A stretch of DNA of 64,000 nt from an uncultured bacterium (GTDB taxonomy: Bacteria > Patescibacteriota > Patescibacteriia > Patescibacteriales > UBA12465): positions 281,159 to 345,158 of the forward strand of contig OW818634.1 of NCBI GenBank assembly GCA_942492765.1, in the 5' to 3' direction. This document shows positions 4,944 through 64,000 of this stretch, one piece after another (positions within the stretch are counted from its first letter, which is position 1; each line of letters starts with the position of its first letter). The notes under the pieces are model-generated. The model did no database searches. It was not told where the DNA came from and was given only the letters and a program-made list of their open reading frames with translations. A program made the translations under genes and the position numbers.

Positions 4944-4969
4944 GATATCGGATCCTTTCTTTAATTGGT

Positions 4970-6068: not shown

Positions 6069-6130
6069 TATTTTTTATTACAAAAAGACAGGGTGTCCAG
6101 CTCTGTCTTTTTGTAATAAAAAATATTGAC
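6064..6130. terminator. 28-bp perfect inverted repeat (hairpin, 11-nt loop); probable terminator of the mur/ABC operon
   Basis: gtcaatattttttattacaaaaagacag (6064-6091) is the exact reverse complement of ctgtctttttgtaataaaaaatattgac (6103-6130). The right arm abuts the ABC transporter stop codon (6130-6132). The inner part has the A-tract/stem/T-tract form of a bidirectional terminator. Confidence 0.6.
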
Positions 6131-11740: not shown

Positions 11741-11743
11741 AAT

Positions 11744-15312: not shown

Positions 15313-15314
15313 AC

Positions 15315-20640: not shown

Positions 20641-20675
20641 ATAACACCTTAATACTAACATATCTTAATTATTAT

Positions 20676-23430: not shown

Positions 23431-24374
23431 CAGGATTCATTAGCTTTATACCATTCTAGCGTAGCGCGCAAGCCCTCCTCGAAAGATTGGAGCGGCTCCC
23501 AGCCTAATTCCGCCCGCGCTTTGGAAAAATCAATCGCGTATCTCAAATCGTGGCCGAGACGATCGGGCACATATTCGATCATCTCTTCACCGCGACCCAT
23601 CAGGCTAAGTATCAGCTTGGTTATTTCCATGTTAGTCTTCTCGTTGCCGCCTCCTAGGCAATAAGTCTCGCCGATGCGGCCATGTTTAATGATCATATCG
23701 ACGCCGCGGTTATGGTCATCGACATGAATCCAGTCGCGGACATTCGCGCCCGCGCCATAAACCGGAACCTTCTTCCCTTCCATCAGGTTAGTGATAAAGA
23801 GCGGAATCAGCTTTTCTGGATATTGATAAGGTCCGTAATTATTGGAGCAATTAGAAATAGTGATCGGCAGCTTATAAGTATGGTAATAAGCGCGGACCAG
23901 ATGATCCGAACCAGCCTTAGAAGCGCTATAAGGAGAGCGCGGATCATAAGGAGTCTTCTCATTAAATTTCGGCGCGCCGAAATCCAAGGCGCCGAAAACC
24001 TCATCGGTCGAGATATGATGGAAGCGGATATGGCCGTTGTTCTTCGCCGCTTCCAATAAGGTCCGCGTCCCTTCGACATTAGTACGGATAAAGTCAGCGC
24101 TATTCTTGATAGAGCGATCGACGTGGCTCTCGGCCGCAAAATGAACAATGACATCTATTCCCTGCACCAGATCATTAACCAGCGCCGCATCGCAGATATC
24201 GCCTTTGACGAACTTATAGTTAGGATTATTCTCCACATCCTTAAGATTATCCAGATTGCCGGCATAAGTAAGCGCATCCAGATTGATAAGGCTGTCTTCC
24301 GGATATTCCTTCAGCCAATAGCGTATGAAGTTGGAGCCGATGAAGCCGGCGCCGCCGGTAACGAGTAATTTCAT
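23412..24374 (-). CDS. rfbB: dTDP-glucose 4,6-dehydratase (canonical)
   Basis: 320 aa with TGGAGFIGSNF, LDALTYAGNLDNLKD, the canonical HHISTDEVFG, YSASK, VRDWIHVDDH and RLGHDLRYAID. Confidence 0.9.
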   Translation of the reverse strand: MKLLVTGGAGFIGSNFIRYWLKEYPEDSLINLDALTYAGNLDNLKDVENNPNYKFVKGDICDAALVNDLVQGIDVIVHFAAESHVDRSIKNSADFIRTNVEGTRTLLEAAKNNGHIRFHHISTDEVFGALDFGAPKFNEKTPYDPRSPYSASKAGSDHLVRAYYHTYKLPITISNCSNNYGPYQYPEKLIPLFITNLMEGKKVPVYGAGANVRDWIHVDDHNRGVDMIIKHGRIGETYCLGGGNEKTNMEITKLILSLMGRGEEMIEYVPDRLGHDLRYAIDFSKARAELGWEPLQSFEEGLRATLEWYKANESWWKKLK

Positions 24375-26830: not shown

Positions 26831-27634
26831 TTAAGGTATAAGGACAGACACTATAGTCAGATTATCAAGGTCGACGAGAGGCTCGATGATCGCCTCCTGC
26901 CAAACCTCGTTGCTTTCATTGAAAACCTGGGTGACGCGGCCGATAACCAGACCGCGGGCGATATGTTCGCCCAAACCCGAGGTGATGACGATGTCTCCCG
27001 GCGCTATCTTCTCTAGCTGCGGAATATAATTCATCCTGATAGTCAGGCCGAGATCGCCATCGGTTATGCCCTGCGTCTTATCGGAATTCTGGATAGCGGC
27101 GGCTAGCTGGCAATTAGGATTAGTCGTCAAGCATATCTTAGCCGTCGCGTCTTTCGTTTCTAAGACTTTACCGACGATCAAGCCGTCTTCGCTGACTACC
27201 GCTAAGCCAGCGACTAATCCGTCCTTGGCACCGCGATTGATAACTAAGCCCAGGCTATCTTCAGCGGCCGCTTCTTTGGCGATGACGCTCGCGACTACAG
27301 TCCGTGAATTACTATTGCTAGCGAATTTCAAGGCCTCGCGCAGCTTGCGATTCTCTTCCTCTATCTCTAAGCTGCGGGAATTAGCCACAGTCAGGACTAA
27401 CACTTCTTTAGCTAAACGATCAGCTCGCGCGGCTGGATCTTCCGGATTATTATTGGCGTCATAAGCCGTCTTGATATTCGTGCCGGCATTATAAAAACGG
27501 CTGGCGATAGGCTTGACCAGATAAACCAGAGAATTCTCCAACGGCCGCAAGAATCCCGATATATGCAAAAAAAACAGCGCGGCGGCTATTATCAGGCAAG
27601 GGACGACCGGATTGTTTTTCTTGATTCTAACCAT
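26831..27634 (-). CDS. mreC: Rod shape-determining protein MreC
   Basis: 267 aa with an N-terminal TM, a coiled-coil segment (LEIEEENRKLREAL) and a beta-rich C-terminal domain (GDIVITSGLGEHIARGLVIGRV). It follows mreB. Confidence 0.8.
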   Translation of the reverse strand: MVRIKKNNPVVPCLIIAAALFFLHISGFLRPLENSLVYLVKPIASRFYNAGTNIKTAYDANNNPEDPAARADRLAKEVLVLTVANSRSLEIEEENRKLREALKFASNSNSRTVVASVIAKEAAAEDSLGLVINRGAKDGLVAGLAVVSEDGLIVGKVLETKDATAKICLTTNPNCQLAAAIQNSDKTQGITDGDLGLTIRMNYIPQLEKIAPGDIVITSGLGEHIARGLVIGRVTQVFNESNEVWQEAIIEPLVDLDNLTIVSVLIP

Positions 27635-27635: not shown

Positions 27636-28676
27636 TTAATCAGTATTCGAAGGCAGAACGACTTTCTCTAATAATTCCTTATCAGTTAATAAGATGCCGG
27701 TGCCGCGCACGACGCAAGTCAATGGATCATCGGAAATCTTGACAGGAATCTTGGTCGCCAGAGAGATAGCCTTGTCCAAGCCGCGCAGCAGGGCGCCGCC
27801 GCCGGAAAGATACAGGCCGCGCTCATAAATGTCAGAAACTAATTCCGGAGGAGTCGTCTCTAAGATAGTCTTGATGTTATCGATGATCTTGACGACGGTG
27901 CGATTGATCGCTTCCCTGATCTGCTTGTCGCTGACCATGAGAGCCTTAGGCAAGCCGGTAACGAGATCGCGGCCGCGCACTTCTATCTCGGTCGGAGCCT
28001 CCAGGGGGACAGCCGAACCGATAGCGATCTTGATCGCTTCCGCCAGCTGCTCGCCGATGAGAATATTGAATTCTTCGCGGATATACTCGATGATGTTGTT
28101 ATCAAATTCGTTTCCGGCCGCTTTCAGAGATTTCCAGGTGACGACGCCGCCGAGCGAGATGACGGCGATTTCCGTCGTGCCGCCGCCGATATCTACGACC
28201 ATGGTCGCGGTCGCTTCAGTTACGGGCAAGCGGGCGCCGATAGCAGCGGCCATCGCTTCCTCGATCAGATAGACCTTGCGGGCGCCGGCAGACTTGGCAG
28301 CATCCTCGACCGCCTTCTTCTCTACCTCGGTCAGGTCGAGCGGAATGCCGATGACGACGCGCGGGCGGGAGATGAGAGTAAAATTCTCAGTATGGACTTT
28401 ATTAATAAAATATTTGAGCATCTTCTCAGTCACTTCAAAATCAGAAATGATCCCTTCGACGAGCGGCTTAATCGCTTCGATATGGCCCGGAGTCTTGCCG
28501 ACCATCTTCTTGGCAGCCTCGCCGACCTCCAGGATTTCATTCGTACGCTTATTGATAGCGACAACGCTAGGCTCGTTGATTACTAGCCCCTTATCAACAA
28601 CATAAACCAGGGTATTCTTGGTTCCCAAGTCGATTCCTAAGTCATGGCTGAATTTTCCGAGCAGATTATTGAACAT
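27636..28676 (-). CDS. mreB: Actin-like rod-shape protein MreB (paralog 2, in mreBCD)
   Basis: 346 aa with LGIDLGTKNTLVYV, VVDIGGGTTEIAVISLGG and YLSGGGALLRGLDKAI. Confidence 0.9.
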   Translation of the reverse strand: MFNNLLGKFSHDLGIDLGTKNTLVYVVDKGLVINEPSVVAINKRTNEILEVGEAAKKMVGKTPGHIEAIKPLVEGIISDFEVTEKMLKYFINKVHTENFTLISRPRVVIGIPLDLTEVEKKAVEDAAKSAGARKVYLIEEAMAAAIGARLPVTEATATMVVDIGGGTTEIAVISLGGVVTWKSLKAAGNEFDNNIIEYIREEFNILIGEQLAEAIKIAIGSAVPLEAPTEIEVRGRDLVTGLPKALMVSDKQIREAINRTVVKIIDNIKTILETTPPELVSDIYERGLYLSGGGALLRGLDKAISLATKIPVKISDDPLTCVVRGTGILLTDKELLEKVVLPSNTD

Positions 28677-50904: not shown

Positions 50905-53013
50905 TTATTTTCCGGTCGCGATCTTATCCAGGTTAGCGTTGCTGATCCCTAAGCCGCGGCTCCTGATGACGTTGAAAGCATCCGCCGGGCGGCCGAGATA
51001 ATATAATTTCAGCTTGAGCGGATCGAAATAATAGGCCATGCCCTTGTCTTCCGTTTTTAATAAGATACGTCCGGCCAGTTGTTTCCAGGCGCTCGGATTT
51101 TTCGCCAACGCTGTAAAATTCTCATTAGATATCCCTAAACCGAAACGACGCATCAAATTAAAAGCGTCGGTCGGGCGGCCGAGATAATACTTCTTGCTGT
51201 CTGTCGGATTGACATACCAAGCCTGCCCCTTATCCTGGACCTGCAATAAGATCCGGCCTTTCAGACTCTGAGCCAGAGAAGACGCGGCCGTAACGGTAGA
51301 GTTCGCGGATGAAGACGAAGATGAATTCGCAGTCGAGTTCGAGGCGGCCGAGCTTGATGAAGTCGAACTAGTCGAAGGCGCATTCTCTTTTATCCGCGCC
51401 TCGAAAGTCGTATCCTTATCCGCAGAAACGAGAATATTATACAGAATTATCGTCGTGCCGCTAGCATTCTTCGAACTAACGACATAGCGCCCGGTCTGAT
51501 TGCGGCGATACGGATTATAAGGAGCGACATAGATATAAGCTTGCCCGCCAGCATCAGTGGTCATATTCGAAATCAGGCCGTTATTAGGGATGATCGGATT
51601 ATTGTCAGCGTCATATTGCTGAGCGGAAAGAGAAAAATTATGATTGCGTTTCAGATTTCCTTTGCCATCGCGCAAGATTATCTTAAGTAGCGGCACGGTT
51701 TTAGCAATCGTCTTATCCGTAGCGCAAGTGAACTTAAGCGCATCGAAGAACCAGAACTCGCCGAGATCAGCTCTCTTATCCCAGACTTTCAAAGCATAAG
51801 TCTTGGCAGTGTCCGGCTTAAAAGCCACAGAAGCTCTCCCGCCCGAATCAATGGTTCCGCTTGAAACCTTGGTTCCGGCCGACGGCAAGCCATTCGCGTC
51901 AACTACCTGAGTATAGACTTCGAATTTCAATCCCGGAGCGATATCGCCGGCAGCATTGCGCAAAGTTATATTCAGATTAGAACTGCTATTGCAGACGCCG
52001 GTTGACGAAACCGAAGACGACGACGATGAAGAATAGGCTTTATCTAAAGTCAGGAGGAATTGACTGGTAGTGCCATCGGCCACCCGGTTATCCCAAACAT
52101 ATTTATAGGTCCCATCGGCGTTCTTAATGGCCAACATATACAGACCGGGGGCGATTTCCATTGAGCCATAGCCGTTGTCGCCGATAGTAAATTCTCCAAC
52201 TTTTGTACCTTTAACATAATTGTCGCTCGCATCCGTGCCCTGGTTATAGACCTCGACCTTCGCGCCGACCGCATTATTATCGTTAGCATCCTTTAGGCGG
52301 ACTTTTATGACGCTCAAATAATAATTGACGTTAGTCAGCTGGCCGTCATAAATCTGAATGTTATAGAAATAAGATTTCACGCCATTGTAAGTTATCTCCA
52401 TGACGTAAAGATCTTTCAAGGTTCCGTCGATGCTTCGGACGCTTCCCTGCGGCAGATAGGCCTTGACGCGACCGGTCGAACCGGAATTAAGGCTAGCTAG
52501 CAGCTCGTCCTTCATCGGTTCGCCGTCAGTATCGGTCGTCTGAGAATAAACATTGAAAGAAGTATTGGTCAGAAGATTATTATCAGAATCATAGAGAGTA
52601 AATGAAGCGCCGCTCAAAGTCCGCTCGACCGCGGCGGTTTCGCCGCAATCTAAATTTATCCCATAGAACCAGAAGCTCGCGTTATCCTTAGAAATTGTCT
52701 GGACGCGGATGACATAGGTATCGGACGAGACGTTAGCATTGCGCCAGATCAGATTCACACGGCCTAAGACCGAATCAGTATTGCCGCCAGTAAACTTGGT
52801 AGTCGGCCGAGTAAGGCCGTTCGCATCTCGCTCTTGTTTATAGACATCAACGCGGGCGTTCATAATATAAGCGCCGCCCGGATCGCGCGCTACGAAATTA
52901 ATACTCGTATTCTGATTGCAAGTCGCCGCCTCTGAAACTGACGGGGCTAAAAATAAAGCCGCAAAGAAAAAACAGACCCCTAAAATCAGCCAGGTTTTTT
53001 TTATCTTTAACAT
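50905..53013 (-). CDS. Large secreted modular surface protein (Ig-like/CarboxypepD_reg-like modules, Ser-rich linkers, tandem C-terminal repeat domain)
   Basis: The ATG at 53013 (MLKIKKTWLILGVCFFFAALFLAPSVSEA signal peptide) is preferred over the TTG at 53031. Several ~100-aa beta-rich modules are present (INFVARDPGG..., LNITLRNAAGD..., LKIILRDGKGN...). There are two poly-Ser/Thr linkers and two C-terminal ~60-aa repeats. Confidence 0.7.
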   Translation of the reverse strand: MLKIKKTWLILGVCFFFAALFLAPSVSEAATCNQNTSINFVARDPGGAYIMNARVDVYKQERDANGLTRPTTKFTGGNTDSVLGRVNLIWRNANVSSDTYVIRVQTISKDNASFWFYGINLDCGETAAVERTLSGASFTLYDSDNNLLTNTSFNVYSQTTDTDGEPMKDELLASLNSGSTGRVKAYLPQGSVRSIDGTLKDLYVMEITYNGVKSYFYNIQIYDGQLTNVNYYLSVIKVRLKDANDNNAVGAKVEVYNQGTDASDNYVKGTKVGEFTIGDNGYGSMEIAPGLYMLAIKNADGTYKYVWDNRVADGTTSQFLLTLDKAYSSSSSSSVSSTGVCNSSSNLNITLRNAAGDIAPGLKFEVYTQVVDANGLPSAGTKVSSGTIDSGGRASVAFKPDTAKTYALKVWDKRADLGEFWFFDALKFTCATDKTIAKTVPLLKIILRDGKGNLKRNHNFSLSAQQYDADNNPIIPNNGLISNMTTDAGGQAYIYVAPYNPYRRNQTGRYVVSSKNASGTTIILYNILVSADKDTTFEARIKENAPSTSSTSSSSAASNSTANSSSSSSANSTVTAASSLAQSLKGRILLQVQDKGQAWYVNPTDSKKYYLGRPTDAFNLMRRFGLGISNENFTALAKNPSAWKQLAGRILLKTEDKGMAYYFDPLKLKLYYLGRPADAFNVIRSRGLGISNANLDKIATGK
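50908..51260 (-). repeat. Coding tandem repeat (2 units of ~185 nt)
   Basis: The peptides GRILLQVQDKGQAWYVNPTDSKKYYLGRPTDAFNLMRRFGLGISNENF and GRILLKTEDKGMAYYFDPLKLKLYYLGRPADAFNVIRSRGLGISNANL repeat. At the DNA level, gggcggccgagataata recurs at about 50988 and about 51173. Confidence 0.8.
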
Positions 53014-53184
53014 TTTATTTAATATTAGCAAAATAAATTAAATATTCCTATTACCCCGGCAGGCTAGAAAAATCGCCAGGGATAACTGAGTTCATTATAG
53101 CATATCTGACTAGAAAATAAACTGGATTTTTCATTGATTTTTAGGGATTAAACTGATATATTTAGAACATAATCCGCTAAAAAT

Positions 53185-54510
53185 ATGCTAAATCGTTTTC
53201 GTAAATTCATCCTCTTATGCGGCGATCTCGTCAGTCTTAACCTGGCGCTATTTTTGACTATCGCTATCCGCTATCCGCAGCCGCTCTGGACTAGTACCTG
53301 GCTGGAGCACTCGCGCTATTTTTTCGTCGTCTTCATTATCTGGCTGATTGTCCTCTATATCAATGATTTCTATAATCTCAACCTGAAAGCGAACGGCCGC
53401 AGCTTCTTTCAGAAACTCGTCAGCGCCATCATCTTGAGCGGCGGACTGTCCATTCTCTTCTTTTACCTTAATTCCAATACCAGCATCGCCCCCAAGACTA
53501 ATCTCTTGATCTTCCTGGGGTTATTCAGCCTGATCTTCTTTGCCTGGCGCGGGCTTTACCAGGGCCTGATTCATTCTTTCATTCCCAAAGAGAGCTTAGC
53601 GATCATCGGCTTCAACCAAAAAACGGAAAAGATCGTTGCCGGCCTGCAAAATAATCCCGGTGCCGGCTATCAGGCTGCTCTGATCTTCAAGAATCAAGAA
53701 GAGATCGCGAGCTTAGCCGACAGCGTCAAGGAAAAAGATATCCATACCGTCGTCATCTGCGACGATTTCGGACTGAGCGGCGGCTTGCGCCAAGTCTTAT
53801 TCAATTGCCTCTCCCTTAACATCACTTTCTTCGATTATCCGGATTTCTACGAACTCCTAACCGGAAAGGTTCCGGTCGAAGAGATCGGGCCGAGCTGGTT
53901 CCTAGAAAATCTGAAGGAGGGCGGTAAGAATTATTATAATTTCATCAAGCAGCTGATTGACACGATCTTGGCGATAATCGTCCTGATAATCACTCTGCCC
54001 CTCTGGCCCCTGATCGCTATTATCATCAAGCTCGAGAGCCGCGGTCCGATCTTCTTCCGCCAAGTTCGCCTCGGCCGCAATGAGAAGCCTTTTAGAATGA
54101 TAAAATTCCGGACCATGAAAGAAGAGGGCAATGCCAGAACACTAACCATAGAAGGCGACAAGCGCATCACTAATTTCGGCTCTTTCCTACGCAAGACGCG
54201 GCTAGATGAAATTCCTCAGGTCTTGAATATCCTGCGCGGCGAGATGAGCTTCATCGGCCCGCGCCCGGAACGCCCAGAGATAATCGCTGATTTAGAAAAG
54301 CAGATTCCCTTCTTCAAGACCCGCCTCCTAATCAAGCCGGGGCTCACCGGCTGGGATCAGATTTCCGGCCACTACCACTCCCCTTCGGTCGAAGACAGCT
54401 TAGAGAAGCTCCAATACGACTTATTCTATCTCAAGCATCGTTCTCTCTACCTAGACCTATCCATCGCCCTGCGGACGATAGCGACCATGCTTAGCAGAGG
54501 GGGGAGATAA
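53185..54510 (+). CDS. Polyprenyl-phosphate glycosyl-1-phosphate transferase (bacterial sugar transferase, WbaP/EpsE type)
   Basis: 441 aa with N-terminal TM helices and a C-terminal catalytic domain: IKLESRGPIFFRQVRLGRNEKPFRMIKFRTM...DEIPQVLNILRGEMSFIGPRPERP. Confidence 0.85.
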   Translation: MLNRFRKFILLCGDLVSLNLALFLTIAIRYPQPLWTSTWLEHSRYFFVVFIIWLIVLYINDFYNLNLKANGRSFFQKLVSAIILSGGLSILFFYLNSNTSIAPKTNLLIFLGLFSLIFFAWRGLYQGLIHSFIPKESLAIIGFNQKTEKIVAGLQNNPGAGYQAALIFKNQEEIASLADSVKEKDIHTVVICDDFGLSGGLRQVLFNCLSLNITFFDYPDFYELLTGKVPVEEIGPSWFLENLKEGGKNYYNFIKQLIDTILAIIVLIITLPLWPLIAIIIKLESRGPIFFRQVRLGRNEKPFRMIKFRTMKEEGNARTLTIEGDKRITNFGSFLRKTRLDEIPQVLNILRGEMSFIGPRPERPEIIADLEKQIPFFKTRLLIKPGLTGWDQISGHYHSPSVEDSLEKLQYDLFYLKHRSLYLDLSIALRTIATMLSRGGR

Positions 54511-54527
54511 AAGAATTAATGGAATTT

Positions 54528-54560
54528 AAAAAAGACTTACCACAAAATAAGTCTTTTTAA
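54528..54560. terminator. Bidirectional intrinsic terminator
   Basis: aaaagactta (54530-54539) pairs with taagtctttt (54548-54557) across an 8-nt loop, with flanking A and T tracts, between convergent genes. Confidence 0.65.
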
Positions 54561-54570
54561 TTATTATATT

Positions 54571-56139
54571 CTAACGAGAATTGATCTTGAATAAGCTGTA
54601 AGTGAAATCTTGGCCGTTCTTCTTGTAATCAGTAATGAACTTGAAAGGCAGAAGCTTCTTGAAACTGTATATCCGCCAAGTCACTGCTCCGACTTTGGAA
54701 TAATTATCTCTGATATGGTCTTCGATGATCTGACTGCGCAAAGTGGTTTCTATGGGCTTATCTGCGACCAAGAGACAGTCGACCAGCTTGTCCTCCAGCT
54801 CAGCGACAATCATTTTCTGTACATCTTCCGTGAAGGTCCAATTCCAATTAGGGTAAACAAACCTGATCCTCTTGACCGCGGGCAACTTGATATACATCGG
54901 CAGATTATATTGATCGGCCGGATAAACATAAACATATCGGCAGCCCACTACCTCTTCTATATAGGCGGCGGCGCCCGGAGCAAAATCAGAATGATAGAAT
55001 TCCCCAGGCCTGATCCAGAAGATGCGATAAGCCTCTTTGCCTAATGAAAAGATAAAATTAGCGCCGGCTAAAAGTATGTACGATAGAATCAAAAGAGCTA
55101 GCGCGCCGGCGACACGCCTCTTATAGCCAGAAATCCGAACAACAAATCGCTGGTAAAGCTTCTCCCTGAAAAATAAGAATACCCCGGTCAAGAAACCGGC
55201 CATGGCCGGAAGCAAATGAAAATTACCATAGAGGGGGTAAGACATCAGCAGCAGGCACAGCGAAGATAGGATCGGAAAAGTCAGCTTATAATATCTCTCC
55301 CTGCTCTCTTTATTGAAGAATATCGCGCCTAGAACGATGATATCGACAGAAAAAATCAAGAAAAACAGACTGAACGGCTTCGGCGGCCAAGCGCGGGCCA
55401 GACGAGAAACGACTTCAAAATTATAGGTGAACATCAGATAAGCGACTTCTTTGAGATTATCACGATAGATATATAAGAACGGCAATAACGGCGTAATCAT
55501 CCCGGCGACGAAGCGGGCGATGTTCTTCAGGTTTATCAGAACCCGTTCCCTTTTGAAATTAAGCAGGCAATAAAGAAAAAAACCGCAAGATAATAAGACA
55601 AAGGCGTTAAATTTTATCAGGAAGAGCGCTCCGAATAAGACACCGAGAATGACGAGATTAATATTATTGGACCGTGATCGAGACTCCGCCCTGATCTTTG
55701 AGAAAGACAGATAAATAAGAATTACCAGACAAGCGACGTACGGCTCGGGCAGGAAGACGCCGCCGAACATGACCGTCCAAATCAAGATGAGAAACGCTGC
55801 CGATAATATCCGCCCCTTGATCCCGAAAGAAAAATTACGAAAAAAATACCTGATGAACAAGGTGCAGATCGAGGAATTTATGATTATCATCCACAGCGGA
55901 AAAAACTCATAGCCGCCGAGATAAAAGAGCGGCGCGAATAGATAATATTGCAACGGACCGTGATGCTCAAAAAAATCTATAAATGGAACGTAGCCGGAAA
56001 AAGTTTGCCAAGCCGACAAGAGATGCTCCCAGCCATGAATGCCTTTAGACAAATAGAAAAGATAAGCAGCGAAAGCGGCCGCCAAGAAATATGCCAGATA
56101 CTCCCAGAAATATTTATTTATTCTCTTTTTTAGTTTCAT
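54571..56139 (-). CDS. Polytopic (~11-12 TM) membrane protein with ~150-aa C-terminal soluble domain; candidate GT-C-type glycosyltransferase/polymerase
   Basis: 522 aa. The early loop [13 protein letters not shown] carries acidic residues, as in the first loops of GT-C enzymes. It lies in a glycan locus that otherwise lacks a polymerase/ligase. I recognise no definite family. Confidence 0.5.
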
Positions 56140-57619
56140 GATATTCTTCTTCAGTATTTATGTCCCAGAGATTATCCTTAGTTTTCACGTCCGCGATGAT
56201 ATTATCGGCGGCCACGAACCCTGACAAGATAGAATGATCCATATTATTATACTTATGCATGCCATTGCGGCCGACGAGATAGAGGTTCTCGAACTTATCG
56301 AGATAGCTTCTTATCTCTCCGAAGCGGTCATAAGAGCCGAAATAGGCCGGATAAGTCTTCTTCACTCGCAAGACGACATGATCTATGAGATCGGTTTTGT
56401 CGACCATCTTCATCCTCTCGAGCTCCCTGGCGGCAAAATCCTTGATCGCCTCGTCGCTCTTATTCCAGAACTCATCTCCCTCAAAACAGAAATATTCCCC
56501 GCCCAGCCAGACATTATCCTTATCCTTGAGCATGTCCGGACTGAAATTATTGAAGATATCCAAGCGCCCGATAGTCGCGTCCCTTTCTTGGATATATATC
56601 CAATTATCGGGCAGGATCTGATAATCCTTATTGAAGACCATCTTCTTGAATAATAAGCCGACCATTATATAATCGCGATAGACCAGGCCGGCGGCGACGT
56701 CCTTGACTGCGGCCGGAACCGGACCGCGCAATGAGGCGATTAATTCTTTCACCGGCATCGTGGATATTATATGATCAGCCATGATCTCGTAGGAAGCGCC
56801 GGATTTCAGATCCTGAATCGTCGCTGAACCCAATTTCCCGTCCGCGCTGATATCAAGGCCCGCCACCCGCTGATTAAGCTTGATGACTCCGCCCCTCTTC
56901 TCGATCAGATTCGCGGTCTCTTGATACATCTGTCCGGCGCCATAACGCGGATAGTGGAATTTCTCTATCAGGCTCGTCTCGACTTTCTTCCCTTTCTTCT
57001 TGAAGATATCGAAGATAGCGTGCTTGATAACCTCGGTGACGGACAAGCCTTTGACTCTCTGCCCGCCCCAAGAAGGCGGAATCTTCTCACAAGGCACTCC
57101 CCAGACTTTTTCCGTATAATCCATGAAAAATGTCTCGTATAATTCTTGGCCGAAACGATTGATATAAAAATCAGCCAGAGATTTTTCTGAACGGATCGGA
57201 AAGAGGCGAATGCGTATATAGCTGAGGCCGATCTTAAACACCCGCCAAGGACCGAGATTAGAAAGAGTCTGATAATTCAGCTTTATCGGGTAATTGAAGA
57301 ACTTCTTAAGAAAGAATATCCGAGTCAGCCGATTAACCGAAAGAAAATCGCCTTCGCCAGACTCCCCGTCCTTAGGCCCGAGAATCTCTTGCCAAAAATC
57401 ATTGACGCGATCGACCTTAGAGAAAAACCGATGCGGGCCGATATCAATGCGATAGCCGTTATGTTCTATAGTCTTAGAGATGCCGCCGACCTGGCTGTCT
57501 TGTTCGATCAGGATAGGCTTGATGCCCGGGACTTTGAGCAATTGATAAGCGGCGGCTAGCCCTGCCGGACCGGCGCCGATGATGATAACTGTCTTGTCTT
57601 TTGATGTCTCTTTCTCCAT
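56114..57619 (-). CDS. FAD-dependent flavoenzyme, UDP-galactopyranose mutase-like (long type)
   Basis: 501 aa. The dinucleotide fold is [17 protein letters not shown]...EQDSQVGG. The C-terminal [21 protein letters not shown] resembles the RFGSWRYEVGNQDHS region of long UGM enzymes as I recall them. Confidence 0.6.
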
Positions 57620-57646
57620 ATTATTAATATTAAGCGCCGGATATAT

Positions 57647-58072
57647 TTACTCCGCTCGGAATCTCTTCAGATTGAAGGTGATATTCTTGTGCGCCCAGAA
57701 ACTCCAGAACATCACCAGCAAGAGGCTGACAGCCTTGGCGAACATATACCAGAGTCCGAATAATTCTACTAAAGCGCTGATGATCGCCTGATTGAGAGCT
57801 AGCCCGACGAGCGCGACGCCGACGAAGACTCCGAATTGCAGGGCGATCTTCTTGTCCTTATCTTTAAAATTGAAAAATTTATTCAAAGTATAATTAACAG
57901 CCATGCCGACGGTATAGGAGATGGCAGCGGATATGAAATAATGGAGATGAGCCTTATCGGTCAGAAGATATAATATGCCGAAATCGAAAATGGTCGCGGC
58001 TCCGGCAAAGAAGACGTAATAGACGATCTGGAATATTTTTTCATTCTTGATTTCTAGAAATATCAGCTTCAT
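57647..58072 (-). CDS. GtrA family membrane protein
   Basis: 141 aa and 4 TM helices, with FFAGAATIFDFGILYLL and LNKFFNF, typical of GtrA-like proteins. It has an ATGA overlap with the next GT4. Confidence 0.8.
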   Translation of the reverse strand: MKLIFLEIKNEKIFQIVYYVFFAGAATIFDFGILYLLTDKAHLHYFISAAISYTVGMAVNYTLNKFFNFKDKDKKIALQFGVFVGVALVGLALNQAIISALVELFGLWYMFAKAVSLLLVMFWSFWAHKNITFNLKRFRAE

Positions 58073-59265
58073 AATTTATGATCTTCCTTCCCTATCTTTT
58101 CAAAAAGCTCCTGCCAGACAACCTTTATTTTTCCGATTGAAAAATCTTCAGCCCGAGCCAGAGATAATTCTTGATATTCCTTCCTCTTCTCTTCGTCATT
58201 CAAGAGAGTCGAAAAAGCTTCGAGCCAGTCGCCATATCCCTTATCGGCGGTATCAATATCTTCAGATATTTTATAGTTTAAGACCGGAACGAGCAAGCCG
58301 AATTTCTTCCCGTTGCTTAAGAGTATCTCTCTCGGCCCGTAATCGCAATCGCTCGAAACGACCGGCAGACCGCAAGCCATAGCCTCTAAGATGACCATCG
58401 GCATGCCCTCGGAAACAGAACTAAGGACGAAGGCAGTCGCTCTGGCCATGAATTTATAAGGGTTCTTTTGGAATCCTAGGAAATAAACATTATAAGAAGA
58501 ATCTATTTCTGCTATCGGATTAGAAAAGACGGAAAATACTTTCAGGCCTAATCCGGCGGCATAAGCTAAGAGCTGACCGCGCAGATCGCCATCGCCGATG
58601 ATGAACAGTTTCGCGCTAGGATTATTTTTCAGCTGACTGCTAAAGGCTTTTAGCAGCGTCCATTGAGCCTTCTGATAAAATAGGCGGCCGACGGTAATGA
58701 GGCTGTCTTGCATCAGTTCGTCGGAAAAATCTAAAGCCTCGGTCTTCAGGCCATTGACCGAAGGCAAGTCAATCGGATTATAGATGACGGAATTATAGCT
58801 TTTAAAACTGATCATCTTCTTAAAGTCATCGTTAATCCCCTCGGAGACGGAGATAACGGCGTCGGCCCAAGGATAAAGCATCTTGATGAGCAGATAATAG
58901 GGGTATTTCTTAAGAGTCTTGAAAGATGAAGAAATATTGGTATGCAGAGCGATGATCGCCTTATGGCCGGATATGATCTTCGCGCAGATGTTCACGAAGT
59001 TAGCCCGTTCGATGAAGCTGACGACCACGTCTCCGCTTCTCAAGATCCGGCGCAAGCGCCAAGCATAGACCGGAATGAAAATAGTCTTGAGCGCGCTGCT
59101 CGTCGCCTGGGTATGCCCGCTAAGTTTCATGACCGGGACGCTAAGCGAAAAATCCTGTTCATCCTCCAGCGTGATGACCTTATCGAAAACGCCGGCGCTA
59201 GACAATATCTGCGCCACTTTCTCTGCTCCGCCGAATTTCAACGAGTTGATAAGAAGATATCTCAT
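58069..59265 (-). CDS. Glycosyltransferase family 4
   Basis: 398 aa with LKFGGAEKV at the N-terminus and LSSVSEGMPMVILEAMACGLPVVSSD. Confidence 0.8.
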   Translation of the reverse strand: MRYLLINSLKFGGAEKVAQILSSAGVFDKVITLEDEQDFSLSVPVMKLSGHTQATSSALKTIFIPVYAWRLRRILRSGDVVVSFIERANFVNICAKIISGHKAIIALHTNISSSFKTLKKYPYYLLIKMLYPWADAVISVSEGINDDFKKMISFKSYNSVIYNPIDLPSVNGLKTEALDFSDELMQDSLITVGRLFYQKAQWTLLKAFSSQLKNNPSAKLFIIGDGDLRGQLLAYAAGLGLKVFSVFSNPIAEIDSSYNVYFLGFQKNPYKFMARATAFVLSSVSEGMPMVILEAMACGLPVVSSDCDYGPREILLSNGKKFGLLVPVLNYKISEDIDTADKGYGDWLEAFSTLLNDEEKRKEYQELSLARAEDFSIGKIKVVWQELFEKIGKEDHKL

Positions 59266-59272
59266 ATAATGA

Positions 59273-60175
59273 TCATTTGCGGCGATCTGAATAAAAGAAA
59301 AACAGGCCTAGCGGCAAGAAAAATAGGAAGAAAAATCTCAGATAAGCCGGGGCCAGCGCTTTTATCTGCTGGCTGATGCTTATATGGCCATGCAGGGAAA
59401 ATCTGATGTAGTTGACGAGATTCCTCAGCTTCCAAGACAGTGCTAGAGGCAAAGCCAAAAATTCCTGATAGTAAGCGATTGCGCCCAGCGGATTCTTCAT
59501 CCTGAGAGCTACTGAGCGAGCAGATAATCCGCCTGGCTGGTAGTCAGCGATCAGCAGGCAGTCGTTGATGAAGCGGGTCTTATACTTCAAGGCCAGGCGA
59601 TTCCAAACTAGAGCTTCTGACAAGAAATTCTCTCCAGGAAATACCGGGAACTTATAAGCTCGCAGGATATCGGTCACGAAGAAACCGCACTTATCGCCCG
59701 TCACTCTCCGGCGGTAGAAAGTCTCGATAAAATCAGAATCATAAACATCTTCAGGAAAGGCGCTGCCGATAAGATTATGAGCGGGATCCATGCAATTAGC
59801 CAGGACTCCTGAAAATAAAGCCTGATCGGCTAGCGATTGCCAATATTTCCAAAAGACGCTCAAAGCATTATCCACGAAATAGTCATCAGAATCAATGACT
59901 AAGAATAAGCGGCCGCGCGCGTTATCAATCCCCACATTCAAAGCCGCGTGCTTGCCTTTATTTTCCTGCTTGATATATCTGATCGGCAATACTCCTTCCT
60001 TAATCCAGGATTCAGCCAGGGCTCCAGTATCGTCAGTCGAGCCATCGTCGATGATCAGCCATTCGAAATCTTTATAATCCTGCCGCTTCAAGGACTCATA
60101 AACCCGCCCCAAGAGATTGGCGCGATTCAAAGTCGGAGTACAGACAGTGAAATTATAGCTGGATTGATTATTCAT
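59273..60175 (-). CDS. Glycosyltransferase family 2
   Basis: 300 aa with VCTPTLNRANLL...FEWLIIDDGSTDDT and a DSDD motif. Confidence 0.85.
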   Translation of the reverse strand: MNNQSSYNFTVCTPTLNRANLLGRVYESLKRQDYKDFEWLIIDDGSTDDTGALAESWIKEGVLPIRYIKQENKGKHAALNVGIDNARGRLFLVIDSDDYFVDNALSVFWKYWQSLADQALFSGVLANCMDPAHNLIGSAFPEDVYDSDFIETFYRRRVTGDKCGFFVTDILRAYKFPVFPGENFLSEALVWNRLALKYKTRFINDCLLIADYQPGGLSARSVALRMKNPLGAIAYYQEFLALPLALSWKLRNLVNYIRFSLHGHISISQQIKALAPAYLRFFFLFFLPLGLFFFYSDRRK

Positions 60176-60803
60176 CTTGCTTGATATCCTTAACGGCTAT
60201 TAATTGAAAAGCGAGGCGCGGAAAACGATAGACGATCTTCTGCCCGATATCATTGATCAGGCGCCACAAGGCATAAGGCTTATATTTATATTCGCCCCTT
60301 TCGCCCCTGATGAATTTAAATCCGCCGATGCCGTTCACGCGATAGCCGCGTTGCTTGAATTCTTCGATGCTCCAGCCGGATTTATGGATTTGCAGCGGAT
60401 TATCATCATAAGTATCCTGCTTGATATAGCCATTCGGGGTAGCGATGACGACTCGCTTCTTAGCCCATCTTTCCGCGTTATCAAGGAGGATAAAGCCGTC
60501 GGCCTTATCAAGATGCTCGATAATCTCGGAAGCTACGACTAGATCATAAGAATGCGGCGGGAATTCGATGGTCAGGATATTATCCTGGAAATATTCGTCA
60601 TGAATCCCCTTCTCCCGGCTCTGGCGCAGATAATCTTCGAACATCTCGACTCCGACCTTATGTTTCACGTTCAAGAACTGCACTAGCGAATTATAGCCGC
60701 AAGCCAAATCGAGCACGCTATCGCAATCCTTGGCTGCCCGCTGCAAATAGATAGTCCAGTCAGGAAAAATCTGCTTATAAATCTTCTTAAGATAGTTGGT
60801 CAT
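60168..60803 (-). CDS. Class I SAM-dependent methyltransferase
   Basis: 211 aa with VLDLACGYNS (motif I) and VVASEIIEHL. It overlaps both neighbours by 4-8 nt. Confidence 0.75.
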   Translation of the reverse strand: MTNYLKKIYKQIFPDWTIYLQRAAKDCDSVLDLACGYNSLVQFLNVKHKVGVEMFEDYLRQSREKGIHDEYFQDNILTIEFPPHSYDLVVASEIIEHLDKADGFILLDNAERWAKKRVVIATPNGYIKQDTYDDNPLQIHKSGWSIEEFKQRGYRVNGIGGFKFIRGERGEYKYKPYALWRLINDIGQKIVYRFPRLAFQLIAVKDIKQDE

Positions 60804-61546
60804 AAATTTTTATTCTTAGCTATAATGACGGCATAGGGAGAAAAGCTCGCGCCGTTAACCGGCCAAAATCTAAGGATTTTTCCTGACAGGTTTAATATCT
60901 TGATCAAAGCTTTCTTAATGACGCTCTGGGACGTGCTTTCGGCCCAGAAATCAAAACCGCCCCTAAAGCCGTAAAACAATATTTCATATCCGGAATCAAT
61001 CAGAATCTTCTTCCAAGCTGCCGGATCCATCGATGGCAGATAATGCCTCTCGAGATTATCGCGATCTAAGCGGCTATGAAGCATCTTCTGGAAAGCGCCG
61101 CGGAAATTCGGAGTAGTGAGAATCAACAGGCCGCCCGGGGAGATGAGGGACAAGTGCCGGCGCAGGACCTCGTCATAATTGACAAAATGTTCGATGAATC
61201 CGAACGAGCAGACGATATCATAAGTCCGGCCGCAATCAAGCTTGAAAAAATCATCACAATAAAAATCTCCCGCCTTGTAGTTGTTAGCGGCCAGCCACCG
61301 CGGCATATCGGTCAGGACGCGCGGCGTCAGGTCGACGCCGTTCAAGACGTAGCCTAAATCTCCGAAGACGCTCAAGTATCGTCCCGGAAAGCAGCCGACT
61401 TCGAAAACGGATCGATCCGCACCGAGAGCGGGCGCATAAGCCTTGATGATTCGACGGATCGGATCAGAGAATGACGGCTTGAAAAAAATCAGATCCTTAT
61501 AAGATTCGTCCCAATGTTCCTGACTAGCCAGATTATTCCCTTCCAT
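60800..61546 (-). CDS. Class I SAM-dependent methyltransferase
   Basis: 248 aa with VFEVGCFPGRY (motif I), DIVCSFGFIEHF and GGLLILTTPN. Confidence 0.75.
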   Translation of the reverse strand: MEGNNLASQEHWDESYKDLIFFKPSFSDPIRRIIKAYAPALGADRSVFEVGCFPGRYLSVFGDLGYVLNGVDLTPRVLTDMPRWLAANNYKAGDFYCDDFFKLDCGRTYDIVCSFGFIEHFVNYDEVLRRHLSLISPGGLLILTTPNFRGAFQKMLHSRLDRDNLERHYLPSMDPAAWKKILIDSGYEILFYGFRGGFDFWAESTSQSVIKKALIKILNLSGKILRFWPVNGASFSPYAVIIAKNKNL

Positions 61547-61547
61547 A

Positions 61548-62474
61548 TTAGTAAGCCGAGAGCGCGCGGCGCTTCTTGGCGTTAAGTATAGATAAATAAA
61601 TATTCTTGCCCAAGAGTGAACAGGCGGCCGTAAACAGATTGCGCCAAGTAAAATCTACCTTAAGAGATTTGAGAAAATATTGACGCGCTTCTTTTGACCT
61701 GCCAGCCAGGAAGTTCATGGTTCCCAGATGCCGATAATGGATGGCCAGGATATCCGGATACTCGCTCAGCAGCTTCAGGTGCTTAGCTACGAAACGTTCA
61801 TAATCAGGCGCGGCTTTCGTGAAATCCTTCGATAGGTTCTCATCATCAATATAATAATTGATCAGGACTTCGTCAACGAAATCAAAACGATAACCCGCGG
61901 CCGCTATCCGGACGAAGATATCCTGATCCTCGAATAATTTCAGAGACTCGTCCCTCGAACCGACTTTTTCGACGACGGTTCTAGGCACCATGATCGAACT
62001 ATTGCTGAAAGCGTAATTTCCTCCCTCCAAGAGCAAATCGCGGATGGAGCTAAATTTATGCATCTTGTGGATGCCGCCGGAATTCTTATTGCTGTTATTG
62101 ACTATCATGACATTGCAGCTGACTAGGCCAAGATTCTCATTGGGATGATCGTTAAAGAATTTCAGCTGTTTCTCCAGTTTAGCCGGCAACCACTCATCGT
62201 CATGATCAAGATAAGCGATGAATTCTCCGGAACTGACCAAGAAGGCTTGGTTCTTCGGATTAGCCGCGCCGCCGGAATTAGCCTGATAGATATATCTTAT
62301 TCGAGAATCGGCCGCCGCCATCTTCCGGACAACTTCGCCGGTATTATCTTTCGAGCCGTCATCGATGACGATCAACTCGAAATCCTTGAAGGTCTGATTC
62401 AGGACGCTATTAATCGTCCGGGGCAGGATGTCCGCGCGATTATAAGCCGGGATGATTACGGAAACTTTAGGCAT
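61548..62474 (-). CDS. Glycosyltransferase family 2
   Basis: 308 aa with VSVIIPAYNRADIL...FELIVIDDGSKDNT and a DHDDEW motif. Confidence 0.85.
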   Translation of the reverse strand: MPKVSVIIPAYNRADILPRTINSVLNQTFKDFELIVIDDGSKDNTGEVVRKMAAADSRIRYIYQANSGGAANPKNQAFLVSSGEFIAYLDHDDEWLPAKLEKQLKFFNDHPNENLGLVSCNVMIVNNSNKNSGGIHKMHKFSSIRDLLLEGGNYAFSNSSIMVPRTVVEKVGSRDESLKLFEDQDIFVRIAAAGYRFDFVDEVLINYYIDDENLSKDFTKAAPDYERFVAKHLKLLSEYPDILAIHYRHLGTMNFLAGRSKEARQYFLKSLKVDFTWRNLFTAACSLLGKNIYLSILNAKKRRALSAY

Positions 62475-62477
62475 AAA

Positions 62478-63776
62478 TCAATTATTATTCTTATCTTTCT
62501 TATTAAGAGACATGAGCAGGGGCCATAAGCTGTAAGAGATGAGCGTGGCGATAGCCGATCCGGCCATGCCGAAGAGCGGCAAGAGCCATAAATTCAAAGC
62601 GACGTTGATGATGACGAGCGCAATCTGCACCAAGAAGATGAATCTCTCCTTATTCTCGACGACTAAGCGGTAATTGATGGTCGCGCCCAAGAACATGCCG
62701 ATATTCGACCAAGCGTATATCTTGAGGATGCCGGCGGCGGCGGCATATTCCGGACCGAATATCAGGGAGATGATGGGCCGAGAAAACAAGGACAAGAAAA
62801 CGGCCAAGAAGAGGGCCGCAAAAAACATGAATATATATAAGGATTTCAGCCGCTTAGCAAAAGAGAGATCGCTTCCCTGCCTAGCGTTAACGATGGCGGG
62901 AAAGAGCGAGTAGCAGACGAGAGTCGGGATGAAATAGAATATCTCCACTAATTTCACGGCTGCCGAATAGATGCCGACCGCTACATCTCCCAAGGCCTGG
63001 CCGATGATGACCTGGTCTATCCGTAACAACAAGAAGCTGGCGGCAGCGGATAGCATCAGGGGCCAAGAATATTTCAGAATCTTATAAAAAAGCGCGCGGT
63101 CGAAATCGAATCGGAAATCTTTCTTCTCAGAAGCCAGATAAGCGAGGAGCAAAAAAAGAGCTAAGAGGGCGGCGTCGAGGACATAAGACGCGGCCAAATA
63201 GATTATTCCCAGCCCTAGCTTGATGATGATCAACTTGACGAGCAAGGAGACGGCTGAGACGGCTATCTGGGAAATAACATTTTTCTTAGCCATCACTTTC
63301 GATTGAAAGAATGATCCGGTCACCTGGAAAGAAGCAGCGATGAAAGTCAGTGAGTATATGGCGATCATGAGATGGATTAAGCCACCCTCGTTGAAGATGA
63401 AAGAAAAGGACAGCGCCGCTAAAAAAGCGACCGCGCCGCCGATAAGCTTCAAGACAAAACCAGAACTCATGATCTTATCCGCCTCCTGATTATTCTTAAT
63501 GATCTCTCGGGAAATGACGATATCTGAGCCGATGGCGGTAATGAAAGAAAATAAGCTGGCGAAGCCGATGGAGTAATTCAAAAGCCCGTAATTCTTCGGC
63601 CCTAGATATCGGGCGACGATAATGCCGGCGACAAAGGCGACTAAGAGTGAAAACATCTGCCCGAAAAAAAGCCAGCCCGTATTCTTAGAATACTTGCGAA
63701 AACCCTCATGGCTCAGGACCCAGCGCCATCTTCCCGGGAGAAAACTATTTATCTTGTCGAACAAAACGTCAATCAT
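62478..63776 (-). CDS. MOP-superfamily polysaccharide flippase (Wzx-like)
   Basis: About 12 TM helices with NTGWLFFGQMFSLLVAFVAGIIVARYLGPKNYG. The ATG at 63776 (MIDVLFDK) is preferred because the track start 63812 would overlap the upstream gene's stop. Confidence 0.75.
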   Translation of the reverse strand: MIDVLFDKINSFLPGRWRWVLSHEGFRKYSKNTGWLFFGQMFSLLVAFVAGIIVARYLGPKNYGLLNYSIGFASLFSFITAIGSDIVISREIIKNNQEADKIMSSGFVLKLIGGAVAFLAALSFSFIFNEGGLIHLMIAIYSLTFIAASFQVTGSFFQSKVMAKKNVISQIAVSAVSLLVKLIIIKLGLGIIYLAASYVLDAALLALFLLLAYLASEKKDFRFDFDRALFYKILKYSWPLMLSAAASFLLLRIDQVIIGQALGDVAVGIYSAAVKLVEIFYFIPTLVCYSLFPAIVNARQGSDLSFAKRLKSLYIFMFFAALFLAVFLSLFSRPIISLIFGPEYAAAAGILKIYAWSNIGMFLGATINYRLVVENKERFIFLVQIALVIINVALNLWLLPLFGMAGSAIATLISYSLWPLLMSLNKKDKNNN

Positions 63777-63805
63777 TTTTATAATAAAAAAGCGGCAGAT
63801 AAATC

Positions 63806-64000
63806 CTACCACTCCTTAGTCTTATCTATAACTTTATTTTTTAAATCTAAATAAGCTTCCACGGCCTTATGCTCTACCGCCGGTGAAACGAGCCTCAGAA
63901 TCTCTAAACCGAGAATGCGATATTGCTTCCCGACCTTATTCGCCTTCAAGAGCCCCTTCTTCAAGAGGCGCTTCAGGGTGCTATTGCTTATCTTGAGTAT
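63806..64000 (-). CDS. Helix-turn-helix (excisionase/MerR-like HTH_17-type) DNA-binding protein, C-terminal part; 5' end outside window
   Basis: My minus-strand translation from the window edge is ILKISNSTLKRLLKKGLLKANKVGKQYRILGLEILRLVSPAVEHKAVEAYLDLKNKVIDKTKEW with a stop at 63806-63808. The pattern ST..RL...G.L.A.KVG..YRI is typical of small HTH binding domains. Confidence 0.5.
   Translation of the reverse strand: MLKISNSTLKRLLKKGLLKANKVGKQYRILGLEILRLVSPAVEHKAVEAYLDLKNKVIDKTKEW

Follow-up and report, generated by a model that had tools for sequence, protein, structure and literature searches.

Gene organization of the locus

The 64,000-nucleotide stretch of DNA analysed here (the window) comes from an uncultured member of the Patescibacteria and carries, at positions 53185-63812, a ten-gene glycan assembly locus in which a gene for a priming transferase (PGT) on the plus strand converges on nine genes of the minus strand (54571-63812). 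Taken as a Wzx-type glycan locus, it is ordinary, and what makes it of interest is an embedded module of three genes, which encode a GtrA-family membrane protein, a flavoenzyme that we argue is a long-form UDP-galactopyranose mutase (UGM), and a membrane glycosyltransferase (GT) of the GT-C fold. The ten open reading frames (ORFs) are the following.

53185-54510, plus strand: priming polyprenyl-phosphate hexose-1-phosphate transferase (large PGT, WbaP/WcaJ type), 441 aa; Bac_transf, TIGR03025
54571-56139, minus strand: divergent GT-C(A)-fold membrane glycosyltransferase, 522 aa; AlphaFold2 (AF2) model and Foldseek
56114-57619, minus strand: predicted long-form (eukaryote-like) UDP-galactopyranose-mutase-family flavoenzyme, cytoplasmic, 501 aa; NF005546
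57647-58072, minus strand: GtrA-family small membrane protein (putative polyprenyl-phosphate-sugar flippase or lipid-binding partner), 141 aa
58069-59265, minus strand: GT4 retaining Leloir glycosyltransferase, 398 aa; Glycos_transf_1
59273-60175, minus strand: GT2a, GT-A fold Leloir-type glycosyltransferase, 300 aa; Glycos_transf_2
60168-60803, minus strand: MT1, class I SAM-dependent methyltransferase, 211 aa; Methyltransf_11
60800-61546, minus strand: MT2, class I SAM-dependent methyltransferase, 248 aa; Methyltransf_23
61548-62474, minus strand: GT2b, GT-A fold Leloir-type glycosyltransferase, 308 aa; Glycos_transf_2
62478-63812, minus strand: Wzx-type MOP flippase, probable true start ATG 63776 (432 aa); Polysacc_synt

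The intergenic distances, in gene order, are 60 (between the convergent PGT and GT-C genes), -26, 27, -4, 7, -8, -4, 1 and 3 nucleotides, and this close packing implies co-transcription and translational coupling. In the case of gtrA, for instance, the 5' end of the gene shares 4 nucleotides with the 3' end of the GT4 gene. Antisense ORFs within the locus genes are shorter shadow frames. A scan for regulatory signals returned 28 promoter-like sites against a shuffled expectation of 16.2 (sd 3.7), and terminator-like sites at about their expectation, with no interpretable pattern.

The family assignments rest on Pfam and NCBIfam hidden Markov models (HMMs). The PGT matches Bac_transf at 208 bits and TIGR03025 (EPS_sugtrans) at 342 bits, above the cutoff of 295.55, and has five N-terminal hydrophobic segments and one at residues 263-281; its orthologue in a closely related locus (L001) is 94.6% identical. 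The GtrA protein matches PF04138 (GtrA_DPMS_TM) at 82 bits (cutoff 26.1) and has four hydrophobic segments. For the GT4 enzyme, Glycos_transf_1 scores 93 bits and Glyco_transf_4 35 bits, and the top NCBIfam model is PglJ-like, at 135 bits and below cutoff. Glycos_transf_2 is matched by GT2a at 100 bits and by GT2b at 126 bits; the nearest PDB relatives of GT2a are chondroitin synthase (1.4e-14), GalT1 and TarS-type enzymes, while GT2b has TuaG-, PglI- and EpsE-like NCBIfam matches, each below cutoff. MT1 matches Methyltransf_11 and Methyltransf_25 (32 bits each) and, judging by its gene context, probably O-methylates a sugar; MT2 matches Methyltransf_23 at 54 bits. The Wzx protein, with some 12 hydrophobic segments, matches PF01943 (Polysacc_synt) at 122.8 bits (cutoff 28.2) and PF13440 (Polysacc_synt_3) at 76 bits. 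As its L001 orthologue (93.5% identical) has 432 aa, translation more probably starts at ATG 63776 than at GTG 63812.

A sequence-only reading of this DNA had placed the same ten genes at these positions, most of them joined by overlaps of 4-26 or gaps of 1-27 nucleotides, and the ORFs and measured spacings agree. Its assignments of the PGT, GtrA, GT4, two GT2, two methyltransferases, Wzx and UGM-like flavoenzyme are all upheld by the HMMs, with neither the flippase nor the priming transferase reassigned to an unrelated family, so that the label of a Wzx-type locus with two methyltransferases and a furanose-type module holds. The locus also has, as had been noted, neither a chain-length regulator nor an ABC exporter; an MsbA-type exporter elsewhere in the window (6130-7920) is unrelated to it. 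The description of a complete lipid-linked repeat-unit pathway is not supported, as Wzy, Wzz/PCP, a WaaL/PglL-type ligase, LCP and an STT3-type/PglB-type oligosaccharyltransferase (OST) are all missing from the approximately 50 ORFs scanned in the window. Nor did the suggested check for hypervariability bear out a variable locus: in the comparison made, between two close relatives (this window and L001), the whole locus is syntenic with the same gene content, and the locus proteins are 83-95% identical and those of the flanking genes 91-96%, so that cassette exchange is not apparent at this distance. The most diverged locus protein is the GT-C enzyme, at 82.8% identity.

The flavoenzyme as a predicted long-form UDP-galactopyranose mutase

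The flavoenzyme matches Amino_oxidase in Pfam (71 bits) and NF005546 in NCBIfam (681 bits), a model titled 'hypothetical protein', and scores 39 bits against the curated bacterial UGM model TIGR00031, for which the cutoff is 303.75. Its nearest solved structures, matched over the full length, are the UGMs of Aspergillus fumigatus (1e-17) and Trypanosoma cruzi (2e-14), and with a family profile the E-values are 5e-25 and 5e-22, respectively. The short bacterial Glf enzymes are matched at 1e-4, or at 3e-10 with the family profile. With oxidases, CrtI and PPOX the similarity is essentially confined to the 60-110 residues at the N-terminus that bind FAD.

The active site was mapped by laying an HMMER alignment on the table of A. 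fumigatus UGM (AfUGM) residues of van Straaten et al. (PMC3322874). The positions equivalent to AfUGM H63, F158, Y162, N163, W167, R182, R327, Y419, R447, Y453 and N457 are invariant in 91 of 91 family members, and that equivalent to F66 is invariant in an 18-sequence family alignment (A3). The counterpart of N163 is a threonine here, as in prokaryotic UGMs. Replacement of R327 by alanine inactivates AfUGM (PMC3322874). An intact uridine pocket and diphosphate clamp point to a UDP-sugar pyranose/furanose mutase, and together with the full-length homology they argue for placing the flavoenzyme in the UGM family, as a long form with predicted mutase activity. Homologues of 50-60% identity occur in Thermodesulfobacteriota, Babeliales, Bacteroidales, Planctomycetota, Cloacimonadota and Methanobacterium, where their public labels are only 'NAD(P)/FAD-dependent oxidoreductase' or 'protoporphyrinogen oxidase'.

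The polytopic protein as a GT-C glycosyltransferase

The 522-aa polytopic protein is the sole product of the locus without a family: it has no match in Pfam, NCBIfam or PDB sequences, and none to the PMT_2 model even at E <= 1. A word-based search returned only four homologues beyond the window protein, and both of those that bear a source name come from Patescibacteria. An exhaustive profile search among 1.84 billion sequences returned 12 representatives at E <= 1e-30 and 879 at E <= 1e-3. Among the aligned remote relatives, 25 of 45 match PF13231 (PMT_2) and four match PMT, and the family profile finds yeast Pmt2 (1e-4) and ArnT (3e-4) in the PDB.

An AF2 model built from the 45-sequence alignment (pLDDT 90.2, pTM 0.92) has a C-terminal alpha/beta domain of about 150 aa, and its top 16 Foldseek matches are all GT-C proteins: Pmt4 (1.4e-6), ALG9, ArnT (TM 0.51-0.53), AftA, PglB, AglB, ALG3, Pmt1/2 and EmbC. 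It replaced a first model from a 5-sequence alignment, in which the GT-C trend was visible but too weak (pLDDT 61). The GT-C norm, as in ArnT, PglB and PMT, is a set of catalytic acids plus a phosphate-binding base. In the 522-aa protein the first external loop reads D55-F-F-E58-H-H-G-P, with the position of D55 occupied by 39 D and 4 E, and that of E58 by 26 D and 14 E, in the 45 sequences; E132 is conserved, and K176 is K or R in 44 of the 45. Read from the alignment, these four residues are the predicted counterparts of the usual acids and base. A WWDxG-type OST motif is not found in the sequence, and PglB is matched at the level of fold only.

The protein is thus a lipid-phosphate-sugar-dependent transferase of a small new GT-C subfamily. 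It is set apart as a separate small subfamily because PMT_2 is matched by its remote relatives only and because just 12 representatives are reached at E <= 1e-30. A Wzy polymerase, considered as another identity for this protein, is ruled out by the GT-C fold and the remote homology.

Distribution of the GtrA, mutase and GT-C module

Close relatives of the GT-C gene lie on five contigs long enough to judge gene order, and on four of them (the window, L001, L004 and L092) the order GtrA-mutase-GT-C is found. The L004 locus retains a GT2 gene ahead of these three, directly upstream of gtrA, and GT2b is 35% identical to its product and closer to it than GT2a is. L092 retains the three genes, and ahead of them (L092:1-6968) lie genes of the heptose-nucleotide type, for an NTP-transferase/HAD fusion, a GHMP kinase and a SIS isomerase. 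Methyltransferase genes recur near relatives of the GT-C gene (L005, L092 and L093). In distant taxa (L008-L011), the mutase gene adjoins gtrA, genes for large polytopic proteins without Pfam matches, or both, and several of these modules are surrounded by unrelated genes (L009, L010).

A systematic scan of species-representative genomes gave at least 600 matching stretches, of which 599 were confirmed relatives; the best 80 were analysed, and 73 of these have an intact mutase ORF. Cultivable carriers include Puia dinghuensis (L040), Taibaiella lutea (L051), Kolteria novifilia Pan216 (L041), Microbacterium ginsengisoli DSM 18659 (L061), Nostoc (L081) and Methanobacterium (L023). Polytopic proteins were defined as those with at least seven transmembrane (TM) segments, and the linkage counts are lower bounds given the small HMMs and hydropathy-based TM counts used. 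A polytopic gene or one matching the GT-C HMM is the immediate neighbour of the mutase gene in 38 of 73 loci (52%) and lies within two genes in 47 (64%), against a background of 18/434 (4%) for polytopic genes more than three positions away. The gtrA gene is the immediate neighbour in 13 of the 73 loci and 0/434 in the background, and a GT2 gene lies within three genes of the mutase gene in seven loci (background 4/434). Of 80 polytopic neighbours, 35 fall in GT-C Pfam families (24 PMT_2, 6 PMT and 5 GT87).

Gene fusions tie the same partners together. In Nostoc (L081:7992-10031) the fusion partner of the mutase is GtrA, with 149 aa at the C-terminus that match the GtrA HMM at 2.8e-22. In three Chitinophagaceae (Niastella, Paraflavitalea and Puia dinghuensis) the partner is a 9-TM protein of about 530 aa with a GDS-type acidic motif following the first TM helix. 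The coordinates of the mutase::9-TM fusions are the following.

L024:8013-11195
L034:7917-11195
L040:7995-11186

A fusion of mutase and class I methyltransferase also exists (P0200, 766 aa). Its methyltransferase domain resembles MT2 (31% over 108 aa, E 2e-7) and MT1 (E 0.009) weakly, and this likeness was not used. In a member of the Babeliales (L011:8499-13947), the mutase gene is followed by four tandem genes for paralogous polytopic proteins of 446-466 aa, the first of which matches PMT_2 weakly and the first three the GT-C profile, an arrangement that suggests a battery of GT-C enzymes with a common donor.

Taken across genomes, GtrA, the long-form UGM and GT-C recur together in several bacterial phyla and in Methanobacterium, and appear to form a widespread, uncharacterised variant of three-component glycosylation. 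The open-access papers searched yielded no description of this gene module, of GtrA in connection with galactofuranose (Galf) or a mutase, or of bacterial long-form UGMs.

A candidate polyprenyl-phosphate sugar synthase

Three-component systems need a synthase for the lipid-linked sugar, and a candidate for this fourth component of the furanose pathway is encoded elsewhere in the window.

14303-14965, plus strand: soluble DPMS/PpgS/AglJ-like polyprenyl-phosphate sugar synthase, candidate fourth component, 220 aa, without TM helices

This GT2 enzyme matches the PpgS model NF058614 at 157.6 bits (E 3e-46), below the equivalog cutoff of 370, and AglJ at 89.5 bits, as well as models of dolichyl-phosphate hexose transferases. 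Its top PDB match is the dolichyl-phosphate mannose synthase (DPMS) of Pyrococcus furiosus (5MLZ, 6e-10, residues 1-206), whose membrane domain belongs to the GtrA/DPMS_TM Pfam family. Homologues with four C-terminal TM helices directly adjoin the mutase gene in two of the scanned loci (L037 and L085); the order in L037, from Thiobacillus, is two polytopic genes, gtrA, mutase and GT2. In the window, the start of the gene overlaps a T2SSE-type ATPase gene (13296-14306), and two GT4 genes lie downstream (15093-17530). The region may be a second glycosylation locus or may hold the missing synthase of the furanose module. GT2a and GT2b were also considered as GtrB-like synthases and rejected, having no affinity to DPMS or GtrB and soluble Leloir enzymes as PDB relatives.

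A two-part model and its alternatives

The explanation that we favour, with a probability of about 0.55, has two parts: a Wzx-dependent oligosaccharide line and a furanose branch outside the membrane, the latter made up of the mutase, a DPMS-like GT2, GtrA and GT-C. In the first part, the PGT would prime undecaprenyl phosphate, the GT4, GT2a and GT2b enzymes would elongate the chain on the cytoplasmic face, MT1 and MT2 would O-methylate it, and Wzx would flip it. A short glycan rather than a polymer is probable because no Wzy or Wzz was found. In the second part, the long-form UGM would turn UDP-galactopyranose, or a close UDP-sugar, into its furanose form, and a DPMS/PpgS-like GT2, for which the protein encoded at 14303-14965 is the candidate, would load the furanose onto polyprenyl phosphate. 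GtrA would then bind and flip the polyprenyl-phosphate furanose, and GT-C would transfer the sugar on the outer face, either to the flipped oligosaccharide or to a Ser/Thr-rich surface protein. The furanose part is thus best read as a separate branch outside the membrane and not as a supplier for a cytoplasmic transferase.

Several observations weigh against this model. The locus itself encodes no polyprenyl-phosphate sugar synthase, GT2a and GT2b resembling ordinary soluble Leloir enzymes; the candidate lies some 40 kb away beside two other GT4 genes and may serve another pathway, and any GT2 gene at all within three genes of the mutase gene is found in just seven of 73 loci. In L005, the PGT gene comes directly before that of the GT-C relative, and neither a mutase gene nor gtrA is in view. 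The heptose-nucleotide-type genes of L092 imply that the sugar may not be galactose in every lineage. A lipid-linked Galf donor was not found in the open-access papers searched, where the key intermediate is thus without precedent. Lastly, the neighbourhood analysis was made on crude ORF calls with hydropathy-based TM counts and small home-made HMMs.

Were the mutase only to feed UDP-Galf to GT2a, GT2b or GT4, GtrA and GT-C would constitute an independent three-component side branch adding a pyranose, such as glucose, from a lipid-phosphate donor. Such feeding is the standard arrangement for Galf-containing bacterial glycans with glf, three Leloir GTs share the operon with the mutase, and the intact uridine- and diphosphate-binding residues mean that the product would be a UDP-sugar that these GTs can use; for this one locus it is plausible. 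Against it stands the linkage across phyla, which is to GT-C and GtrA (a polytopic gene next to the mutase gene in 38 of 73 loci) rather than to Leloir GTs (a GT2 gene within three genes in seven), together with the modules that sit amid unrelated genes (L009, L010) and the fusions of mutase to GtrA or a polytopic protein in four genomes, so that we hold this explanation to be rather doubtful. Somewhat less probable again is that GT-C acts as a terminal transferase, either a PMT-type protein O-glycosyltransferase working on Ser/Thr-rich surface proteins or an OST/ligase that moves the Wzx-flipped glycan en bloc. This would explain the lack of a ligase or Wzy, no other ligase being present among the scanned ORFs, and it is consistent with Pmt4, a protein O-mannosyltransferase, as the top structural match, with PglB and AglB among the other matches, with remote relatives in PMT_2 and PMT, with the GT-C homologue directly after the PGT gene in L005, and with the secreted 708-aa protein with two Ser-rich linkers that adjoins the locus. 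The missing WWDxG-type motif, however, and a sequence that is closer to ArnT and PMT, with their monosaccharide-phosphate donors, than to STT3, speak against it, and the tight linkage with GtrA and the mutase across phyla points to a lipid-monophosphate monosaccharide donor. The version with a protein acceptor is compatible with the two-part model, from which it differs in the acceptor only.

Two further alternatives concern the flavoenzyme itself. It could form polyprenyl-phosphate Galf directly if, once UDP had departed and the ring had contracted on the flavin, polyprenyl phosphate held by GtrA, and not UDP, were to resolve the flavin-galactofuranosyl adduct, thereby replacing GtrB. Such flavin-mediated glycosyl transfer would explain the 66 of 73 loci without a GT2 gene near the module, the modules that stand alone among unrelated genes in several genomes, and the fusions of the mutase to GtrA (a DPMS-like architecture) or to a GT-C-like protein; nevertheless, the full conservation of the UDP-binding site gives it a low prior, and we consider it improbable. 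Considerably more probable than flavin-mediated transfer is a milder reading, namely pan-prokaryotic furanose addition outside the membrane via polyprenyl-phosphate Galf, with the family as the prokaryotic source of eukaryotic UGMs. The other alternative makes the flavoenzyme a member of the amine-oxidase/CrtI/PPOX superfamily with a redox function, its substrate being either a lipid-linked sugar, in the manner of DprE1, or the polyprenyl carrier. Its public labels and the Pfam match to Amino_oxidase are in keeping with this, and the mycobacterial arabinan pathway is generally known to pair a flavoenzyme with GtrA-like and GT-C proteins (summarised in PMC11127046). The oxidase, CrtI and PPOX matches are N-terminal only, whereas the UGM matches span the whole protein, and all of the UGM substrate-binding and catalytic residues are invariant; on these two grounds a redox enzyme is rejected as highly improbable.

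Comparison with known systems

Systems of the GtrABC type include O-antigen glucosylation in Shigella and Salmonella, CsbB/GtcA/YfhO, which acts on teichoic acids, and PpgS/Rv3632/Rv3779 of mycobacteria. The present case resembles them in pairing a GtrA-family protein with a GT-C transferase and in having a candidate DPMS/PpgS-like synthase in the genome. In such systems the glycan is modified after export (PMC8035078; PMC11127046), and the same logic is proposed here. Unlike these systems, the module includes a UGM-family flavoenzyme as a conserved and integral part that is in some cases fused, the synthase gene is usually not adjacent, and the implied donor is a lipid-linked furanose, which was not found described.

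For furanose addition outside the membrane, the closest precedent is the pentofuranose pathway based on phosphoribosyl pyrophosphate (PRPP), of both the GT136 and the mycobacterial kind. In the pentofuranose systems of Citrobacter youngae O1/O2 (GT136; Kelly et al. 2024), a GT-C enzyme adds the furanose outside the cytoplasm with a polyprenyl-phosphate sugar as the donor (PMC11127046), as is proposed here. As in these systems and in the mycobacterial AftA-Emb system, which uses decaprenyl-phosphate arabinose, the GT-C protein described here has a C-terminal soluble domain, and AftA is among its structural matches. The pentofuranose and mycobacterial donors, however, are made from PRPP by a UbiA-type phosphoribosyltransferase, with or without an epimerase (DprE1/E2), and among the scanned ORFs of the window there is neither a UbiA-type polyprenyl phosphoribose synthase working with PRPP nor a MATE flippase. 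Here the furanose would instead come from flavin-dependent ring contraction of a UDP-pyranose, the flippase candidate is GtrA where theirs is a MATE protein, and the GT-C subfamily also differs.

With eukaryotic UGMs (A. fumigatus UgmA and the enzymes of T. cruzi and Leishmania, GLF) and bacterial Glf, the mutase family shares the predicted fold, the His loop, two essential arginines, a Tyr pair and the uridine pocket. Its members are of eukaryotic size, at about 500 aa, whereas bacterial Glf has 370-400 aa, and their genes are linked to those of membrane proteins, unlike known UGMs, which supply soluble Leloir or Golgi transferases. The remainder of the locus, with its PGT, Leloir GTs, methyltransferases and MOP flippase in one block, is like Wzx/Wzy loci for O-antigen, capsule or exopolysaccharide and like Wzx-dependent protein glycosylation loci (the pgl loci of Campylobacter and Neisseria). 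It differs from both in that the scanned ORFs of the 64 kb include no Wzy, Wzz, WaaL/PglL, PglB-type OST or LCP, and in its monoderm host from the candidate phyla radiation (CPR).

Genomic surroundings of the locus

The nearest homologues of the locus proteins are in metagenome-assembled genomes labelled 'Patescibacteria group bacterium'. The window encodes the housekeeping proteins MurB, a Mur ligase, MurG, FtsW, MraY, two MreB paralogues and MreC, and further SecA, ribonucleotide reductase, IleRS, RRF and an M50 protease. This gene content implies a monoderm CPR bacterium with peptidoglycan, whose carrier is polyprenyl phosphate, and the monoderm setting supposed in the sequence-only reading is borne out by the patescibacterial host and by the genes for MraY, MurG, FtsW and the Mur ligase.

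Next to the locus, and divergent from the PGT gene, is a gene for a secreted protein of 708 aa (50905-53031, minus strand). Its features are a signal peptide, prealbumin/SpaA-like repeat units, two linkers rich in Ser and, at the C-terminus, a duplicated repeat of about 45 aa. The protein is conserved at 91% in L001 and may serve as an acceptor for O-glycosylation.

Between the GT-C and PGT genes, where the window has the 60-nucleotide gap, L001 carries a gene with a Bro-N domain (11741-12445), and a second Bro-N domain gene lies near the GT-C homologue in L005 (11451-12296). These positions hint at a site where mobile or phage-derived DNA has been inserted recurrently. Past the Wzx gene, L001 (1-2315) encodes HTH_17, Fic and HTH_3 proteins and then a further GT4, and the end of the window (63813-64000, minus strand) falls within a homologue of the HTH_17 gene. 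The glycan region may thus extend beyond the window edge, behind a Fic toxin-like cassette.

At 2000-6000 of the window the GC content is 0.34-0.38, compared with about 0.47-0.50 elsewhere, and the genes there encode a NUDIX protein, a B12-binding radical SAM enzyme (3450-4943) and an RmlB-like dTDP-glucose 4,6-dehydratase (4970-5986), of which another copy lies at 23412-24374. This segment is possibly a horizontally acquired sugar-modification island. The genes for the MreB paralogues and MreC (21901-22914, 26831-27634 and 27636-28676) are near a GT4 gene (20676-21890), and beside these lies a gene for an S8 subtilase with FG-GAP repeats (18610-20661).

Significance

Galactofuranose and other furanoses are absent from mammals and antigenic, and serve as drug and diagnostic targets. 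To our knowledge, all characterised hexofuranose routes proceed via UDP-Galf and a cytoplasmic or Golgi Leloir-type transferase. If the two-part model is true, there would be a second hexofuranose route, outside the membrane and via a lipid-linked donor, in parallel to the systems for pentofuranose published in 2024 (PMC11127046). The mutase family is found in many bacterial phyla and in methanogens, with at least 600 stretches in species-representative genomes, and the model would give a function to this very large family, now labelled only as oxidoreductase or protoporphyrinogen oxidase. It would also define new GT-C subfamilies, provide parts for glycoengineering, and bear on the origin of eukaryotic UGMs. 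Patescibacteria have envelopes that mediate their episymbiotic lifestyle and that are largely unstudied, and the model would place a methylated, furanose-bearing glycan on the surface of these bacteria.

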